Shown here: positions 54,136-61,359 of the stretch, piece by piece
Layout: every line of letters begins with the position of its first letter
How positions within the stretch are numbered: the first letter of the stretch is position 1
IMG/VR virus record: IMGVR_UViG_3300021185_001461
Location: 1-64,000 of that record
DNA length: 64,000 nt
Direction: 5' to 3' (one strand)
DNA from: a virus
The notes under the pieces: model-generated
What the model was told of the DNA's origin: nothing
Databases searched by the model: none
Seen by the model: the letters and a program-made list of their open reading frames with translations, nothing else
Made by a program: the position numbers and the translations under genes

Positions 54136-55650
54136 TTAAATTGGGAAATATCTAAAGTCAACTGTTGAACTAGTTGACGGAGCAGTTGTAAATGTTAAAG
54201 TTGTACCACTAATACTATATTCAGTTGGTTGCAAAATTAATCCATCTACTATGGCTAATACGCTATCAACTGTGTGTCCAGTTGGAATAGTATATTGCGT
54301 TGTAGTATTGTCTCCTGTATACTGGTTACTAGTATATATCAAATCTAAGTGTTGGTTTTCTACAGAGTTATTCACTAAACTTACATTTGTTGCATTTGGA
54401 TATCTATACTTAACATAAATCTCATCATTATTAGCAGGAGTCTCATTGAATGATAATGTTGTTCCACTTAACGAGTATATACTAGGACGTTGCAAAACAT
54501 CATTTACATAAACGTCTATAGATTCTTCATCTGCTGGCGAGTCTGTTAATGTGTAATCAACTGTTGATCCATCTCCTGTAAATTCTTGAGAAGCAGGAAT
54601 TGAATTAGATGTAATACTATTATCTGTAAACGAGAAATTACCATTACCATCTGTTTGTAATACTTGACCAACTGTACCATCACTTATACCAAGGTCTAAT
54701 AAATCACTAATATCACTAGCAATTGTTATTCCTTTGGAACCAGTAGTAGTAACTGGAGTAAGTGTAATATTATTACCAGCACGTATATCAATTTCGTCAA
54801 CTGCACTTGCAACAATATCAGTTGGTGTTGTATCACTAACTGTATCGTAAACATGCCACGTTTTAAACGTTGACTCAAGTGTAATTGTAACTGTACCATC
54901 ACTGTTGTCTGTTAATGCAAAACCACCATCGACATCAAATTTTAGTCCTGTTACATCTGATACACTTACGTTTGATGTTGGATCATTTATTTCTTCAACT
55001 GATAATGACGGTAGATTATTTACAATTTCTGTAAACGAGTCTAATGCTGCTGGATCTGTGTTTGATATTATATTAGCTACATCTGTTTGTAATGCAGTAA
55101 TGTCAGCGGATACACTCGATGATGCAGTACCTTTAGTTCCAGAATATGTTGCACCAGATATATAAACACTCTTACCTGAGAAGTTTACACCATCCGGTAA
55201 GTTTGTGCCAATAAAGTTTAATACACCTGACTGATAATCAAAGAACCATTCGTCATTGTTACCACTACCAGTTGTAAAAACTTTGTTAGATAATGACTCA
55301 GCACCTGCGGCATCACCGCTGGTATGAATATAAACATTTACAAGATATGTTGCACCAAATTCAGTTGGAATCCAATCTGTTACTCCTGTTTTCCAAGTTC
55401 TATTAGTACTTGCAGTAATATCAGCAGTTGCTTCAACAGCCGTTTGTATTGTTACTGGGCTTGTTGTAGTACTGGGCTTAACTGAAGGAATACTACCAGA
55501 TTCTGCCCAAATTGTATCACCACGTATTAATAACGGACTTGGTAAACTTTCGTTGGCAGCAAGTTTGTTAGAATTAGTATCAGTTTTGGTTGCACCAAAA
55601 CCAACTTTCTTAAATAGATAGTCTAACTTTTGATTATCGGAAATTGCCAT
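54136..55650 (-). CDS. Virion structural (baseplate/fibre) protein
   Basis: EWFFDYQSGVLNF; repeated GDG.T..YTL...V.V..VLQ.P..YS.SGTTL.F...P domains. Confidence 0.7.
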   Translation of the reverse strand: MAISDNQKLDYLFKKVGFGATKTDTNSNKLAANESLPSPLLIRGDTIWAESGSIPSVKPSTTTSPVTIQTAVEATADITASTNRTWKTGVTDWIPTEFGATYLVNVYIHTSGDAAGAESLSNKVFTTGSGNNDEWFFDYQSGVLNFIGTNLPDGVNFSGKSVYISGATYSGTKGTASSSVSADITALQTDVANIISNTDPAALDSFTEIVNNLPSLSVEEINDPTSNVSVSDVTGLKFDVDGGFALTDNSDGTVTITLESTFKTWHVYDTVSDTTPTDIVASAVDEIDIRAGNNITLTPVTTTGSKGITIASDISDLLDLGISDGTVGQVLQTDGNGNFSFTDNSITSNSIPASQEFTGDGSTVDYTLTDSPADEESIDVYVNDVLQRPSIYSLSGTTLSFNETPANNDEIYVKYRYPNATNVSLVNNSVENQHLDLIYTSNQYTGDNTTTQYTIPTGHTVDSVLAIVDGLILQPTEYSISGTTLTFTTAPSTSSTVDFRYFPI

Positions 55651-58600
55651 TAACTAGTCTCCCCGATAGATATGCTTGTAATTTGCTTACCGCTTGCTAG
55701 TGCTACTCTAACTAACACAACATTGTTTGTTGCATTACTCATATTTTCACTACCTAGTGTCATTGTATAACTTGAATTAATACTTGAACCTGTTGGTACT
55801 GTGTCTGAACCTGTTAACGCACAACCATCACTTCCGTTACCTCCGTTTCCAGTATCACTACCTGGAACACCTGCACCAGCATATTGACTTGTACAGTCTA
55901 GCCAGCCATTTAATCCACTTGCAGTATCAACACCAGTACCTGGTGCTGCAATCCATAGTCCTGCAATACCCGTACTGTTTATACTGATATTAAAGTTAGC
56001 AACAACTTGTCTTCGGAAAGCAAAAGTAAAATACTGTGTTCCAGTATCTGAGCTTCTATCAGGACCTACTGGTAGATAGCCTGTACTATAATCAGTAGTA
56101 TCATGTTTTAGTACACCCCAACGTACAGTTGCTTCTTGTGTTCCACTTACACTAATTGCACCAGTGAATGGTGTAGAAATATAATTAGTAGAACTTGATA
56201 TTGCTGGAGTATCTGTAGTAGAAGATATAAAGTCAGCAACACGAATTCCGTCATCAGTAATTACACCGTTACCTAATCCACTTGCTACAGGTATATCGTC
56301 CTCTAAAACACCCGTAGGATTAGCAGTATGCACCTGTACAGCGGTGTTTGTTAGTTCTGCATAGTTTGAGCTACCATTTACATTATTCGCTTTAAATTTA
56401 AGCGTTTCGACTGCTTTAACACTACTTGTAGTAATGTTAATTGTTTGGTCTGCTAATGCATATGACGAACCAAATCCAGTATTAGCATTTGGTATACCTG
56501 ATGTTAAATAAGAAACTGCTTCTAGGTCTGCATATCCTTTATACTGTGTACTAATAGTAGCACCGCTTGTGCTTTCTGAATTATTACCGTTAGCAATTTC
56601 AAATACATTGTTTGTATCTCTATATGCTTGTCCAATCCAGTTAGAAAGTGATGCACCACTTAGTGTGAGTTGTGGGTTTCCTGTGTTGTAGTATGGAATT
56701 CCAGATATATATCTGTAACTACCTGCGGTGCTTTCTGTCAAAGTAGCACTTGCTAAGTCAATAGTAGGAACGCTAGTTAAGTCATCACAAATAACTGTCA
56801 CGTAGTTAGTATTGCCTGTTGCATTGTGCTCTATTCTTTGATCGTTAACACCTGTTGAATATTCAGCAAATGGTTTAGTAATTTTTGCATCGAATGTTTG
56901 ATAAAAACCTGTAGGATAAGTTGAAGAACTTATACTATCATTTGCATCTCTTTGATCACTAATTACCAAGCTGTCAAAAGTACCGTTTTCATTTAAGGAA
57001 GTAGTAAACGCTTTTGAACCATCTGCTGAACCGTTAACGATTGCAGTTGCAGTACCACTTAAACCATTATATACATTTTGTGCAATGCTGGTGTCAATAG
57101 TACCGTTAGTATATCGTCTTTCGGTATTTGTTTTTAAACTTGCTCCAGCCGAGACTGGTGATGTTGCACTATTATCAGTAAAGTTATTGGCTAGTTTAGG
57201 ATCAATACCCTGTGCGGAATCAGTAAGTGTAATTGTTTTTGTACTTAATCCGCCTGGTGCGTTTGGCACTGCATTAACTTGAAAAGTTAAGCTGGCCGAA
57301 TCTGTTTGAGCTGTTATATCTGGAGTACCTGTTGCAGTAAAATCTAATTGATAGTTACCAGGTGTTACTCCTGTAAAATCATGTTGGACACTGTTTAGTC
57401 CTGCTTCATTGTCATTAGCACTGCCATCGTTCCAATCGTATTCATGATTGTCACCATTTTCACTTGTGTTGTTTACAGTAACTAATGCTCTGTTTACGCC
57501 GTTATAATCTACGCCATCATAAACATCATATATGTTATCGCCGTTACGGTCTGAAACTGTATCAGCACTACCTGAGATGTTAGCTCTAACATCTGGTTCT
57601 ACATGAATTACAAAGTCTGTACTTTCAAAAGGACTGCTAGTGTGATTACTTACAACTTGTAAGTTACCTGTATAATCTGCTGGCGTACTATTATTTGAAA
57701 GTGTGTACTTGTGTGTTATTGTTCTTCCGGTATCACCGCTTTGATTACTTCCTGCGTTTACTGTTGTAATTGTTCCATCACCAAAATCCCATCTATAAGT
57801 TGTTCCATATGTACTGTAACTTCCTATAGTATTTTCAGTGTTGTTAGTAAATGTTACTGTTAATCCTGCATTTGATTCTTCATTAATACCTGTTGTAATA
57901 TTTGAAGTAGTATCAGGTGTATGGTCATCATATATTTTATACGAAGCATCATCATCAAGTGGGAGTATTGATGGCGTAGCTGTGCTATGACTGTCTAATG
58001 TTAGTGTAACGGTTCTTTGTACTTCTGCTTCTGTACTAAGAGCAAACGTGTGAGACAATCGTCCTCCGCCTACACCGCCTGCTACACTATCGCTATTAAT
58101 AACATCATCTGCGGAACCATCACCCCAATCCCATGTGTATTGAATTACTGCTCCTGATGTGTTAGTTGTTGTATTTTCGAAATAGACAGTATCGCCATCA
58201 TCCCAATATGTAATTGCGTTGCCACCAGTTGGTGCATCGTATACTACAAATGAAACTGCTGGATCGCCTGTAAAAATTGTTATATAATCTTCTCTTATTT
58301 TAGTAGAAGTTGAACCTGTTCCAGATCCATTATTATTAAAAGCCGTTACTGTTACATCAAACGGGCTTCCTGTGTTAGTTGAATAGGTATGAGTTGGAGT
58401 TGAATCTGTTGTTGCAGTTGTTGAGGAACCATCGCCCCAATTAATAGTATATCTGTTTGGATTTCCGTCAGCAGTAATAGTAAGAGTAGAAGTTAGACCT
58501 GCGCCGCCTGTAACAATGTTAGCAGTAAAATCAACGCCTTTAACAAATGTATTATTCTGTACGTTTAGAAGTGCTTCGTTAATATCATCAATAGCATCAC

Positions 58601-58868
58601 CTACTGTTGTAGTACTTAACCATCCTTCAATTGCACCGTCTGTCCAACTACTGTCTGAACTTACACCTAATGTTAAATCAATAGCATTACTACCACCACT
58701 ATTTGCTTCTAGGTATGCTTTTGTTACAAGATCTTGTTGATCTACTGGATCAGATGCGTTTTTAACAATCTTCGCTGAAACATCAATATTACTTGTGGAT
58801 CCTGCATCTAATATTAGGTCAGATTCTGATTTAATTTTATCTGCCTGATGATTTATGTTTATAGCCAA
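55650..58868 (-). CDS. PKD-domain virion structural protein (TTG start)
   Basis: INWGDG, WDWGDG, WDFGDG, YDWNDG PKD signatures; GAGGA RBS. Confidence 0.8.
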   Translation of the reverse strand: MAININHQADKIKSESDLILDAGSTSNIDVSAKIVKNASDPVDQQDLVTKAYLEANSGGSNAIDLTLGVSSDSSWTDGAIEGWLSTTTVGDAIDDINEALLNVQNNTFVKGVDFTANIVTGGAGLTSTLTITADGNPNRYTINWGDGSSTTATTDSTPTHTYSTNTGSPFDVTVTAFNNNGSGTGSTSTKIREDYITIFTGDPAVSFVVYDAPTGGNAITYWDDGDTVYFENTTTNTSGAVIQYTWDWGDGSADDVINSDSVAGGVGGGRLSHTFALSTEAEVQRTVTLTLDSHSTATPSILPLDDDASYKIYDDHTPDTTSNITTGINEESNAGLTVTFTNNTENTIGSYSTYGTTYRWDFGDGTITTVNAGSNQSGDTGRTITHKYTLSNNSTPADYTGNLQVVSNHTSSPFESTDFVIHVEPDVRANISGSADTVSDRNGDNIYDVYDGVDYNGVNRALVTVNNTSENGDNHEYDWNDGSANDNEAGLNSVQHDFTGVTPGNYQLDFTATGTPDITAQTDSASLTFQVNAVPNAPGGLSTKTITLTDSAQGIDPKLANNFTDNSATSPVSAGASLKTNTERRYTNGTIDTSIAQNVYNGLSGTATAIVNGSADGSKAFTTSLNENGTFDSLVISDQRDANDSISSSTYPTGFYQTFDAKITKPFAEYSTGVNDQRIEHNATGNTNYVTVICDDLTSVPTIDLASATLTESTAGSYRYISGIPYYNTGNPQLTLSGASLSNWIGQAYRDTNNVFEIANGNNSESTSGATISTQYKGYADLEAVSYLTSGIPNANTGFGSSYALADQTINITTSSVKAVETLKFKANNVNGSSNYAELTNTAVQVHTANPTGVLEDDIPVASGLGNGVITDDGIRVADFISSTTDTPAISSSTNYISTPFTGAISVSGTQEATVRWGVLKHDTTDYSTGYLPVGPDRSSDTGTQYFTFAFRRQVVANFNISINSTGIAGLWIAAPGTGVDTASGLNGWLDCTSQYAGAGVPGSDTGNGGNGSDGCALTGSDTVPTGSSINSSYTMTLGSENMSNATNNVVLVRVALASGKQITSISIGETS

Positions 58869-58939: not shown

Positions 58940-59539
58940 TTATGCTATGCTAGAACCATAAACAGAAAGAATAGACCAACCAGAACTTGTATAAATTAAA
59001 TCTATACTTTGTCCTGCTGTTGTAAAAGATATTGTATTAAAACCATTTGCAGTATCCGGTGTTACAACTACTGTACCACTTGGTGCTGATATAACAACTA
59101 TTGTTTTTCTTTCACCTACTTCTCCATTTGCTAAACTTAATGCCAAATCAGTACTTACATCTATATACAACATTCCTGTTGTGCTAGAAGATGCTGAGTT
59201 TGTTACTGATTGCGGTATTGTTACTGCTTTTTGAGAATAAGATGTATTCCAAGGTTTTATAGTGCTACCTATGTTATATATGATCCCAGAGGCTGTGTTT
59301 GGAATAACATGGCTGCTTATATTGGCATTTATTGCCAATGAGCCTCCTCCATTGCCTAGTGATATAACATCTCCGTTTACTAAAAGAGTTCCACCTACAT
59401 ACATATTTCCTGATGTATAATGGCCTCCTTTAATATGAAGTGCTGCACCTACTGGATCAACAGGAGATACGCTAACGTCTAATGCATTAGTGCTTTCAAT
59501 TACTAGTGTTCCAGAATCTGGGTTAATGTGTGATGACAT
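58940..59539 (-). CDS. Virion structural/fibre-like protein
   Basis: 199 aa Ser/Gly/Thr-rich; late promoter upstream. Confidence 0.6.
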   Translation of the reverse strand: MSSHINPDSGTLVIESTNALDVSVSPVDPVGAALHIKGGHYTSGNMYVGGTLLVNGDVISLGNGGGSLAINANISSHVIPNTASGIIYNIGSTIKPWNTSYSQKAVTIPQSVTNSASSSTTGMLYIDVSTDLALSLANGEVGERKTIVVISAPSGTVVVTPDTANGFNTISFTTAGQSIDLIYTSSGWSILSVYGSSIA

Positions 59540-59644
59540 AATACTTTTTCCTACTACTTCCTATTATTATATATGTATTTATCAAAGACAGAGAGTTTTT
59601 GCTGCTCAAAGAAAAAGACGCTCTAAAGCGCCTTTTAAAAAATA

Positions 59645-59856
59645 AGCAAAATAGGTAGGACTCGGTTATACCTACAAGCACGTACACAGAATACCATTCT
59701 ATCACGCACAACCTAGTTCCGCTCGGTAGAGCAATGTGATCCTTAGTCTCTCAACCTCGAACCTGGGTACCACCCCTAACTAGTCAAGTTCGACCCTTCT
59801 GGTAAAGGCCTCTTCCTTGCACTATAAACAAAAGTTAATTATTCTCTTGTTGCTAT
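59645..59856 (-). ncRNA. Candidate structured non-coding RNA (~200 nt)
   Basis: Own sigma70 promoter; multiple stems whose G-U pairs work only on the minus strand; terminal hairpin plus U-rich tail; GC-rich relative to the genome; no credible ORF. Confidence 0.65.
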
Positions 59857-59862
59857 GTACTT

Positions 59863-59891
59863 AATATACAACGTTTTTGCATAAAGGTCAA
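59863..59891 (-). promoter_or_regulatory. Sigma70 promoter of the candidate ncRNA
   Basis: TTGACC-17-TATATT, preceded by an AT-rich UP-like tract. Confidence 0.7.
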
Positions 59892-59909
59892 CCTTTTTTT
59901 TAAAAAAAA

Positions 59910-60062
59910 TTAAATTTTTTGTAATCTAGGGTCTGATGCAAGAATATTCTTGTCAGCACGTGGTCTTGACAATGGTCTTTGCAGTTGTTTTTTGTGAATT
60001 GCTTTGTGTGATCGTTTAGTACGCTCTTTTTTACGAGCTATTTCGAAGTCTCTATGATTCAT
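59910..60062 (-). CDS. 50-aa basic peptide MNHRDFEIARKKERTKRSHKAIHKKQLQRPLSRPRADKNILASDPRLQKI
   Basis: Manually translated; AAGGAAG RBS; directly downstream of the glutamine riboswitch. Confidence 0.7.
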   Translation of the reverse strand: MNHRDFEIARKKERTKRSHKAIHKKQLQRPLSRPRADKNILASDPRLQKI

Positions 60063-60087
60063 AACACTCTTCCTTTTAAAGTTAAGT

Positions 60088-60132
60088 GCGTTCCTTCGCT
60101 AGTGCTACTTCCGTCCTAATTTAGGATGAACG
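60088..60132 (-). promoter_or_regulatory. Glutamine riboswitch (glnA RNA motif)
   Basis: CGUUC-A-UCCUA(AAU)UAGGA-C-GGAAGUA-GC(ACUA)GC-GAAG-GAACG-C: P1/P2/P3 three-way junction with E-loop. Confidence 0.8.
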
Positions 60133-60136
60133 TGAG

Positions 60137-60168
60137 AAAAAAATAGGCCCAATAAAGGGCCTATTTTC
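60137..60168 (-). terminator. Terminator after the major capsid gene
   Basis: AATAGGCCC-loop-GGGCCTATT followed by a U-tract on the minus strand. Confidence 0.85.
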
Positions 60169-60195
60169 ATATTGAATATGTATTCTAGTAAAATA

Positions 60196-61359
60196 TTACT
60201 GGAATGACAAGTTACCTGAGTTAACATCAATTTTAGATAGGTAATCAGCTGCGTTACCAAGAGATGAAGCTTGGTTGTTTAGCTCAACATAACCATAACG
60301 TGTCATAAATGATACTGTTGGTTCGAATGTTGCCGGATCTAATACTGTGCCTGAGCTCATTAGTGGGATGTATGGGCAGTAAAATGCTGCTGCATCAATC
60401 TCACCGTCGCCTTTATAGCCAACTAGTACTGGAGCATTATCTGCCGCGTACTGGTCAACAAAAACACGCATAGTGCCGTTCAAAGTACCAACAAATTTAG
60501 TGTTAGTTGGAGCTTCGAATGGTCCTTCAGTTGTTCTTGCGAACGCTGAAGTTGTTGCACTTTGTAGTACAGTTAACATTGTTGGTGAAATAACAACGTA
60601 GTTACCTGCGCCTCTACGTGTACGTGCTGCGATTAAGTTAGCTGATCTGTTAATAAGAACTGCCAACGCCGCATGCTGGTCTCCAACAAACGTTGCTGTA
60701 CCAGAAACGTTACCCTGGTCATATGTGTCTGTTGCCGTACCCGCTAATGTGCGAAGTGAAGTTAAAACTTCTTGATCAATCTCAGCAGTAATTTCTTGTG
60801 CAAGTGCTTGCATAATTTCTGCTTCAACGTCTAGACCGTGCATTGAATTAGCATCTTGTGCCGCTTCAAAAGTCCAACGTGCTGATAATTTACGTGTTTT
60901 CGCTTCAACAGTTTGTTTCAATACTTGGATTGAAAGCTTCTTACCAGCTTCTGCCTCTAGTGCTGAAGTTGAAGTTGCTGTACCGTTTGATGCGTCACCT
61001 GAGTAACCTTTTGCAATTGCGAAAGGTGATAGTGCTTCATCACCAGCTGTTACGCCAGCTGCTGTTTGGCCATATCTTACTCTTAATGTGTGAATTTGTC
61101 CTACTGGACCTGTCATAGGTTGTACACCTACTAGTTCGTTTGCGATAACTGTTGGCATCACACGACGAATAACTGGAAGAATCACTTTGTTAAGTGATGC
61201 TACGTTACCTGCCATAGTTGTGCCAGCATTAGCTGATTCTGAAAGGTAGCCCTTAGTGTTTTCTAGGACTGATTCCATTACAACCTTTTTGTTACCTTCT
61301 AAGCCATCTGTAAGGGCGTCTTTTGTAACGTCCCAATTTTCAAATAGATTCTGTGTCAT
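60196..61359 (-). CDS. gp23: Major capsid protein (T4 gp23-like)
   Basis: GVQPMTGPVGQI..LR, VEAKTRKL.ARWT.E.AQD, EITAEID, YCPYIPL, F.P....TRYG. Confidence 0.97.
   Translation of the reverse strand: MTQNLFENWDVTKDALTDGLEGNKKVVMESVLENTKGYLSESANAGTTMAGNVASLNKVILPVIRRVMPTVIANELVGVQPMTGPVGQIHTLRVRYGQTAAGVTAGDEALSPFAIAKGYSGDASNGTATSTSALEAEAGKKLSIQVLKQTVEAKTRKLSARWTFEAAQDANSMHGLDVEAEIMQALAQEITAEIDQEVLTSLRTLAGTATDTYDQGNVSGTATFVGDQHAALAVLINRSANLIAARTRRGAGNYVVISPTMLTVLQSATTSAFARTTEGPFEAPTNTKFVGTLNGTMRVFVDQYAADNAPVLVGYKGDGEIDAAAFYCPYIPLMSSGTVLDPATFEPTVSFMTRYGYVELNNQASSLGNAADYLSKIDVNSGNLSFQ

Follow-up and report, generated by a model that had tools for sequence, protein, structure and literature searches.

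A divergent manA RNA between phage late genes: probably a separate early transcript, possibly a multimerizing one

INTRODUCTION

What kind of RNA lies between the major head protein gene and the next late gene in the virus record IMGVR_UViG_3300021185_001461 (IMG/VR), and does it control that gene or act on its own? We addressed this question in a 64,000-nt stretch of the record (positions 1 to 64,000, hereafter the window), where an earlier note, made from the letters without database searches, had picked out a stand-alone structured RNA on the minus strand and called it possibly undescribed. Judged from its sequence, the RNA at 59645-59850 belongs to the known manA family, as a divergent member, and is not a new family. 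Our preferred reading, in which we place somewhat more trust than doubt, is that manA here is an autonomous, early-expressed RNA of ~245 nt that possibly multimerizes.

The manA family has been known since 2010 and includes the first natural RNA reported as a 60-subunit cage (10.64898/2026.07.01.735769). Weinberg et al. 2010 (PMC2864571) found manA in marine metagenomes, T4-like cyanophages and two gamma-proteobacteria, and listed it as a probable riboswitch candidate in potential 5' untranslated regions (UTRs); their figure carries the label 'pseudoknot?'. Significant covariation is given for 48 pairs in the Rfam 14 paper (PMC7779021), and a copy scoring 100.6 bits appears in the S-CREM1 cyanophage paper (PMC9964418). 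A 2026 preprint (10.64898/2026.07.01.735769) reports structures from cryo-electron microscopy (cryo-EM; Protein Data Bank entries 23NO-23NT and 24QD/24QE). In the pentamers of one member, the kissing loops L5-L7' and L8-L9' connect neighbouring molecules, while the contacts of another are L5-L7', L3-L8' and an L6 GNRA-receptor interaction; the pentamers build octamers, decamers and the 60-subunit cage. The discussion of that preprint contrasts manA with earlier long RNA-only multimers, and manA is still described there as a putative cis-regulatory 5' UTR element. Our literature search, with subscription journals outside its scope, found no further manA studies beyond these four sources and no description of manA as a separate transcription unit.

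RESULTS

The RNA is a divergent member of the manA family

We scanned the whole window against Rfam 15 with cmscan at gathering thresholds and used the residue-level alignment to place the helices. Only two families passed the cut-off, manA (RF01745) and the glutamine riboswitch (RF01739). The manA match at 59645-59850 is found on the minus strand only, covers the model in full length (positions 1-192 of 192) and, at 59.8 bits (E 9.7e-13), exceeds the gathering score of 55.2. An Rfam search of 59400-60300 gave nothing besides these two families with E below 0.2. The virus record (121,228 bases) holds a single manA copy, and the family was absent from all 14 control genomes in the same search. 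The RNA had been thought possibly undescribed, and the check by cmscan settles that point against the suggestion. An analogy to ROOL, GOLLD and phi29 pRNA, phage or prophage RNAs that multimerize through RNA-RNA contacts, did not translate into kinship: none of their three covariance models gave a match, be it across the window at the gathering score or within 59400-60300 at an E of up to 1. ROOL and GOLLD are far longer than this RNA and resemble it in neither sequence nor structure.

All of the minus-strand helices listed in the earlier note are present where it had placed them, each on a manA helix according to the sequence and the Rfam alignment (P1-P9, Table 1). The exception concerns function: the hairpin at 59655-59675, taken for a terminator, is helix P9. 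The true terminator hairpin lies at 59636-59613 with a U run to 59608, and the unit therefore extends past 59645, where it had been thought to end.

To follow the fold across relatives, we gathered 15 related viral contigs via the downstream 199-amino-acid (aa) protein. A manA match lies upstream of the 199-aa gene in 10 of the 15 at E <= 0.01, seven of these reaching the gathering score, and alignment reveals the element in 14 of 15. A scan of viral contigs for the 16-nt joiner motif between P2 and P3 returned at least 120 further stretches, from which 83 distinct core sequences were obtained (the subgroup), and a scan for the Rfam-consensus motif returned at least 120 canonical copies. The copy numbers used below for the subgroup (83, 72, 69) and for canonical manA (76, 79) count copies among the matches listed and are lower bounds. 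One locus, a chance match in coding DNA (L028), was removed by hand; four others that look like chance matches (L223, L229, L252, L255) were possibly retained. MAFFT alignments and simple scripts underlie the loop and context counts, with phylogeny ignored.

When the helices of the window were projected onto the alignment of the 83 subgroup cores, 87.4% of 5463 scored cells held standard pairs, compared with 72.8 +/- 0.3% after shuffling, a level that none of 500 shuffles equalled. Sliding the 3' partners by 1-3 columns lowered pairing to 36-51% (maximum 50.8%). Changes on both sides were detected at 47 of the 68 base pairs. The lower stem of P3 and three of the four pairs of P2, which is AU-rich here, are invariant and hence uninformative on covariation. 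As far as aligned sequences can tell, covariation supports the nine-helix manA fold, and tests on relatives, by shuffling and permutation, came out in favour of the RNA for the helices and for three loop pairs described below.

The window RNA shares with canonical manA the same nine helices in the same order, a GNRA tetraloop on P6, a sigma70-like promoter just upstream, L5-L7 complementarity of the GGU/ACC type and complementarity between L8 and L9. It differs in its score (canonical loci reach 169-187 bits), in P2 (AUAG/CUAU here, GGGAG/CUCCC in canonical manA), in the P2-P3 joiner (UGCAAGGAAGAG here, UGaCUGAAUAA there) and in L8/L9, which read GGU/ACC here compared with a consensus of CUGUA/UACAG. 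The canonical consensus thus uses two codes (GGU/ACC for L5-L7 and CUGUA/UACAG for L8-L9), whereas the window uses one. The carrier is also of another kind, with a jumbo-phage-like capsid protein instead of that of a cyanophage.

In a joint Rfam scan, seven of seven canonical loci scored 169-187 bits while one of 12 subgroup loci reached the gathering score; overall, eight of 26 subgroup loci did so. By sequence comparison, this divergent manA subgroup is widespread and mostly missed by default Rfam annotation. Since the Rfam model misses most of the subgroup, annotation pipelines are expected to under-call manA in marine phages outside cyanophages. By blastn, the only phage record with a similar RNA was Pelagibacter phage Mosig (73% identity over 75% of the query), where the match is unannotated and lies upstream of a 'putative rubrerythrin' gene. 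This subgroup copy of Mosig (EXVC030M, which infects HTCC1062), at 5001-5229 of L001, is preceded by the promoter, whereas our scan detected no terminator behind it.

Three loop pairs covary

The two UACC and two GGUA hairpin tips of this RNA had been proposed to form kissing contacts. Counting in fixed columns gave 60.2% and 75.9% pairing for kissing loops, and as MAFFT shifts such short loops, we used a register-free test, in which the best loop-loop duplex within each sequence is compared with 2000 permutations of partners among distinct combinations for each of 21 loop pairs. Only three pairs, L5-L7, L8-L9 and L3-L8, were more complementary within than between sequences. For L8-L9 the mean duplex energy was -4.23 kcal/mol versus -2.90 kcal/mol permuted (0 of 2000; 34 distinct combinations), for L3-L8 -3.62 versus -2.95 kcal/mol (0 of 2000) and for L5-L7 -1.78 versus -1.09 kcal/mol (4 of 2000, or 5 of 2000 in another run; 26 distinct combinations). 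In the same permutation test L6-L7 came next at 85 of 2000 and the remaining pairs lay at 604 of 2000 or higher.

The loops change in a coordinated manner. Partners such as GUGGUA/CUACCG, GUUGUA/CGACA, GUUGCA/CGGCA and GUAGUA/AUACUA are found in place of one another, as are AUGGUA/AACCA, AUGGAAU/AUUCCAU, CAGA/UCUG and CGAGA/UCUCG, and UACCA/UGGUA of L3-L8 becomes UACCU/AGGUA in three sequences. Because the hairpin numbering from the Rfam structure line agrees with that of the preprint, the three covarying pairs are the three published kissing pairs. The loops that hold the pentamers in the cryo-EM structures are therefore the same as those that covary here, where the evidence comes from sequence alone. 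The kissing-loop proposal thus holds up for L5-L7, L3-L8 and L8-L9, and the preprint reports oligomerization via the same pairs. As a guess at oligomerization it was well aimed, yet it is already in print for the manA family and so is not new.

Within the window, the strongest loop duplex is L3-L8 (-5.4 kcal/mol, five pairs); L5-L7 reaches -3.8 kcal/mol and L8-L9 -3.4 kcal/mol. All of these loops use a single GGUA/UACC code, with L5 and L8 on one side and L3, L7 and L9 on the other, and the cross pairs L5-L9 (-3.6 kcal/mol) and L8-L7 (-4.5 kcal/mol) are as stable as the cognate ones. Such degeneracy is found in 19 of 83 subgroup sequences, while another 19 of 83 are cleanly orthogonal. The L6 columns read GAAA or GAGA in 49 of 83 relatives. 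A separate observation is that the tip of P6 carries UACC instead of a GNRA loop in 14 of 83 subgroup sequences (columns 102-105 of alignment A2). By its sequence, such a tip would offer yet another possible partner for the GGUA of L8; the permutation test for L6-L8 complementarity was not significant (604 of 2000).

The RNA has its own conserved promoter and a separate terminator

The sigma70-like promoter that had been noted upstream of the RNA is present and matches the consensus at 10 of 12 positions (TTGACC-17-TATATT). A promoter scan alone does not rise above chance, with eight sites in the region versus 5.3 +/- 2.3 expected, and the support comes from conservation. In A1, an alignment of 16 syntenic regions, the promoter is kept in 15 of 16 rows, nearly invariant as GGTTGACC-17-TATATT. 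Among 72 distinct subgroup copies, 68 have a promoter with at least 10 of 12 matches at the fixed distance, compared with 1 of 72 at a control place, and the same holds for 72 of 76 canonical copies versus 1 of 76. Transcription would start near 59856, as inferred from the promoter position. In many canonical copies (L212, L216, L218, L219, L224 and others) we also observed a GC-rich hairpin that carries the -35 box TTGACA in its loop and whose T run is the promoter spacer, an arrangement that looks like an overlapping terminator and promoter.

The terminator stem, GGCGCU/AGCGUC at 59632-59627/59622-59617, is extended by A/U pairs, is capped by a UUAG loop and is present in the minimum-energy fold. 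It was read from the sequence and the fold; the terminator consensus scan did not list it, probably since the A/U extension of the stem consumes the T tail. The terminator begins ~14 nt past the manA fold and does not overlap it. Across relatives the stems differ yet stay paired (GGCGCU/AGCGUC, GACGCAU.../...AUGUGUC, CCCACAU/UGUGGG and others). A hairpin with a T run follows manA in 38 of 69 subgroup copies, whereas two controls, one taken 250 nt further downstream and one on the reverse complement, yielded 2 of 69 and 12 of 69, respectively. A looser scan finds one in 45 of 72 subgroup copies, 33 of the hairpins beginning 10-17 nt past manA. As an observation on canonical copies, 13 of 29 terminator calls are a conserved hairpin of ~40 nt (AGACC...GGUCU) with a U run, 8-15 nt past manA (L214, L218, L231, L236 and L241 among them), which may represent either a terminator that is conserved or an additional RNA element.

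The 199-aa open reading frame (ORF) lies 105 nt downstream of manA on the same strand, and between the two stand the terminator and a separate late-promoter-like motif, ATAAATA. The motif sits inside a block, ATAAATACATATATA, that is invariant in all 16 rows of A1, as is the ribosome-binding site (RBS) in front of the ATG of the 199-aa gene; we take the block to resemble the T4 late promoter TATAAATA. In the wider context counts the late-type pattern also includes GATAAATA.

One of the 16 rows, L011, lacks the glutamine riboswitch, the 50-aa ORF and manA, and its capsid-gene terminator runs straight into the ATAAATACATATATA block and the gene; the late gene can therefore do without the cassette. 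Compared with 59540-60165 of the window, positions 2120-2503 of L011 lack the whole block of ~560 nt, including the manA promoter and terminator, and the L011 sequence past the capsid-gene terminator resembles the window sequence past the manA terminator. Gain or loss by recombination between two terminators would fit this difference.

Is manA a leader of the next gene?

The best-surviving alternative, which we nevertheless regard as unlikely, is that manA is a riboswitch or other cis-acting leader, in which metabolite binding sets early read-through of the 59636-59608 terminator into the 199-aa and 1072-aa genes. The family was listed as a probable riboswitch candidate in 2010 and is typed 'Cis-reg' in Rfam, and the order of promoter, structured RNA, terminator and gene is the classic layout of an attenuator. 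In addition, a terminator is lacking in 26 of 69 subgroup copies, which lie directly upstream of a gene, and this keeps the cis-acting reading alive. In a switch of the terminator type, some of the terminator has to be capable of pairing with the aptamer as well, and such coupling is what we failed to find. No expression platform overlapping the aptamer was detected, as the terminator stands outside the fold and its arms have no matched complementarity to manA. In the 35 subgroup copies with a close terminator there are 27 distinct 5' arms, and the duplex of an arm with the last 70 nt of its own manA (-6.87 kcal/mol) is like that with other members' (-6.92 kcal/mol), while the terminator hairpins average -12.7 kcal/mol; without matched complementarity, no antiterminator is encoded. 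The promoter-like motif of the next gene is invariant, even in the relative that lacks manA. What follows manA in some copies is a transfer RNA (tRNA) or other RNA gene and not a coding gene: a tRNA lies directly 3' of canonical manA on the same strand in L227 (1729-1801) and L142 (344-417), and aragorn places a tRNA within 200 nt of 5 of 79 canonical and 0 of 69 subgroup copies, while freshwater-2 RNA (RF02980, 52-76 bits) follows ~80 nt downstream of manA, behind a late-type motif, in eight of 12 subgroup loci. The accessible parts of Weinberg et al. 2010, the S-CREM1 paper, the Rfam 14 paper and the 2026 preprint name no manA ligand, and our search, which left subscription journals outside its scope, found none in other manA literature. 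In the cryo-EM structures (10.64898/2026.07.01.735769), the conserved loops serve RNA-RNA contacts.

A separate RNA is favoured over a switch because the terminators are variable and uncoupled, the next gene has its own motif and tRNA or other RNA genes stand downstream; the ~95% occurrence of the promoter and the presence or absence of the cassette also fit a separate RNA better. While the preprint treats manA as a putative 5' UTR element, the layout here argues for a separate gene.

We consider it rather improbable that the RNA is instead the 3' part of an upstream transcript carrying the glutamine riboswitch and the 50-aa ORF, or a trans-acting protein decoy, with multimerization having no role in the cell. 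There is no hairpin terminator between the stop of the 50-aa ORF (59910) and manA, and transcripts from upstream would therefore continue through manA as far as the manA terminator. The glutamine riboswitch also co-occurs with manA in 9 of 15 related loci and 9 of 12 subgroup loci. The near-consensus promoter that manA keeps for itself at a fixed distance in nearly all subgroup and canonical copies speaks against this, as does the occurrence of manA in many other gene contexts without a glutamine riboswitch, and for a decoy, or for the protein sponge suggested earlier, these data hold no pointer to a protein partner.

The idea that the tract is not a functional RNA at all, being a chance fold or the coding sequence of a 62-aa ORF (59523-59711), has next to no chance of being right: an open frame exists and the fold of the single sequence gains little over shuffled versions (z -2.15; 3 of 100 equally good), but the full-length family match and the strong covariation contradict it, and the ORF, which shrinks to 34 aa in the closest relative and has no counterpart in the others, is refuted as a conserved protein. 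No open frame is common to all 14 motif-carrying relatives.

A separate early RNA that may multimerize

We therefore return to manA as an autonomous early RNA. With a conserved promoter, a separate terminator and a 62-aa ORF that is not conserved, the earlier description of a free-standing RNA that has a promoter of its own and lacks a credible ORF has stood the test. In the mechanism we propose, a discrete RNA of ~245 nt, from roughly 59856 to 59610, would be made early in infection. Rather than a leader governing the gene downstream, its unit would be an insert of promoter, RNA and terminator between late genes. The loops L5 and L7 (GGUA/UACC), and L8 with L3 or L9 (UGGUA with UACCA or ACC), may kiss between copies, as suggested by covariation here and cryo-EM of other members, and these contacts might lead to closed multimers built from pentamers.

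Phage 'morons' are inserts of promoter, gene and terminator between late genes. The manA unit is alike in having its own promoter and terminator, in its place behind the capsid gene and ahead of the following late gene, and in being missing from L011. It is unlike them in its cargo, an RNA plus a riboswitch-controlled 50-aa ORF in place of a protein gene alone.

Metatranscriptomes had been named as a check on this unit, and they add a weak hint. Six runs contained 21-46% of the sampled words of 59000-60300, and four of these were examined by contigs. One run yielded an identical 128-nt contig that lies wholly within manA (59661-59788). In the three other runs, the 199-aa gene is represented by contigs whose ends lie at 59553, 59555 and 59578, near the late transcript start expected from the ATAAATA motif, and none enters manA. 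No contig joins manA to either neighbour, and 59556-59660 and 59880-59987 are uncovered in the four runs, though such gaps prove nothing. Coverage of the capsid gene in the RNA libraries was 50-860-fold. This pattern is consistent with a separate manA transcript.

Several points weigh against an autonomous, multimerizing RNA. The margin of the Rfam match over the gathering score is small (4.6 bits). The looser terminator scan is noisy, calling 17 of 72 even at a control place. In the 26 of 69 subgroup copies without a terminator, a late-promoter-like motif lies directly 3' of manA, within 6-7 nt in a subset of them; early transcripts from these copies would put manA in front of the next gene as its 5' leader, in line with the older cis-regulatory view. 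Here, too, transcription may read through the 59608-59636 terminator. The contigs indicate neither the starts and ends of transcripts nor their strand, and DNA carry-over in RNA libraries is possible. The permutation tests ignore the relatedness of the sequences, the L3-L8 signal is partly due to one divergent subgroup that lacks both motifs, and covariation cannot separate intramolecular from intermolecular contacts. Finally, the published multimers were obtained in vitro only, with other members and with RNA annealed at ~3 mg/mL in 10 mM MgCl2 (10.64898/2026.07.01.735769).

A broader proposal, which we offer tentatively and would not ourselves bet on, is that manA RNAs in general are mobile, autonomous early phage RNA genes and not riboswitches, whose product self-assembles in the infected cell into closed multimers via L5-L7', L8-L9' and L3-L8'. 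The shared code of the window RNA would then let any GGUA loop find any UACC partner, possibly with a different geometry.

Genomic neighbourhood and the phage

The coordinates of the RNA, its helices and loops and the surrounding genes are collected in Table 1.

Table 1. Positions of the manA RNA, its structural elements and its neighbours in the window
Feature	Position	Strand	Details
manA RNA (RF01745), helices P1-P9	59645..59850	-	Rfam match and covariation
P1	59850-59845 / 59833-59828	-	5' hairpin
P2	59825-59822 / 59654-59651	-	AUAG/CUAU, closing helix
P3	59819-59816 / 59788-59785 and 59810-59804 / 59798-59792	-	CAAG/CUUG and GGCCUUU/AAGGGUC
P4	59783-59778 / 59718-59713	-	CUAGUU/AACUAG
P5	59776-59774 / 59767-59765	-	GGG/CCC around loop GUGGUA
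P6	59763-59759 / 59742-59738 and 59756-59753 / 59748-59745	-	tip GGUU-GAGA-GACU
P7	59734-59729 / 59724-59719	-	GCUC-UACC-GAGC at 59732-59721
P8	59709-59704 / 59683-59678 and 59700-59696 / 59692-59688	-	GUGCGU/ACGUGC with AGAAU-GGU-AUUCU
P9	59675-59671 / 59659-59655	-	GUAGG/CCUAC
L3, ACCAG	59799..59803	-	with closing U reads UACCA, complementary to L8 UGGUA
L5, GUGGUA	59768..59773	-	GGUA complementary to L7 UACC
L6, GAGA	59749..59752	-	GNRA tetraloop on P6; sequence and Rfam alignment
L7, UACC	59725..59728	-	Rfam alignment and loop duplex test
L8, GGU	59693..59695	-	with flanks reads UGGUA
L9, UAUAACCGAGU	59660..59670	-	ACC at 59666-59664 complementary to L8 GGU
Sigma70-like promoter	59863..59891	-	-35 TTGACC 59891-59886, 17-nt spacer, -10 TATATT 59868-59863
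Intrinsic terminator hairpin and U run	59608..59636	-	hairpin 59636-59613, U run 59616-59608
Late-promoter-like motif ATAAATA	59576..59582	-	inside invariant block ATAAATACATATATA
Next gene, 199-aa protein, no known family	58940..59539	-	RBS GGAAGUAGUAGGAA at 59561-59548
1072-aa protein after 199-aa gene	55650-58868	-	PKD domains; phrog_8578 (function unknown)
Riboswitch-RBS-ORF unit, 50-aa Lys/Arg-rich ORF	59910-60134	-	no Pfam or PHROG match
Glutamine riboswitch (RF01739)	60085-60134	-	52.5 bits versus gathering 35; just past capsid-gene terminator
Major head protein, T4-type, 387 aa	60196-61359	-	phrog_138

The best matches of the head protein among 50,697 phage records are jumbo phage capsid proteins at 68-70% identity. 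The nearest are those of Sinorhizobium phage Phosso, Vibrio phage 2.275.O and the Pseudomonas phage PA5oct group; these jumbo phages measure 287-469 kb. The completeness of the record is estimated at 33% at 121 kb. The window thus probably comes from a marine jumbo phage, a large virus of myovirus type and not a cyanophage. The 1072-aa protein is probably a surface or fibre-like structural protein.

The glutamine riboswitch that precedes manA in related loci is present as a tandem double in four of the contigs (L012-L015). The subgroup loci with freshwater-2 RNA are L047, L064, L130, L127, L059, L100, L060 and L118 (for example L100, 5474-5556). A glutamine riboswitch upstream, manA and freshwater-2 RNA together form a cluster of three structured RNAs. 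Genes for transfer-messenger RNA (tmRNA) of the permuted, alpha-proteobacterial type are also found in contigs with subgroup manA, at 9321-9583 of L021 (minus strand) and 1589-1927 of L001, in agreement with the SsrA annotated in Pelagibacter phage Mosig.

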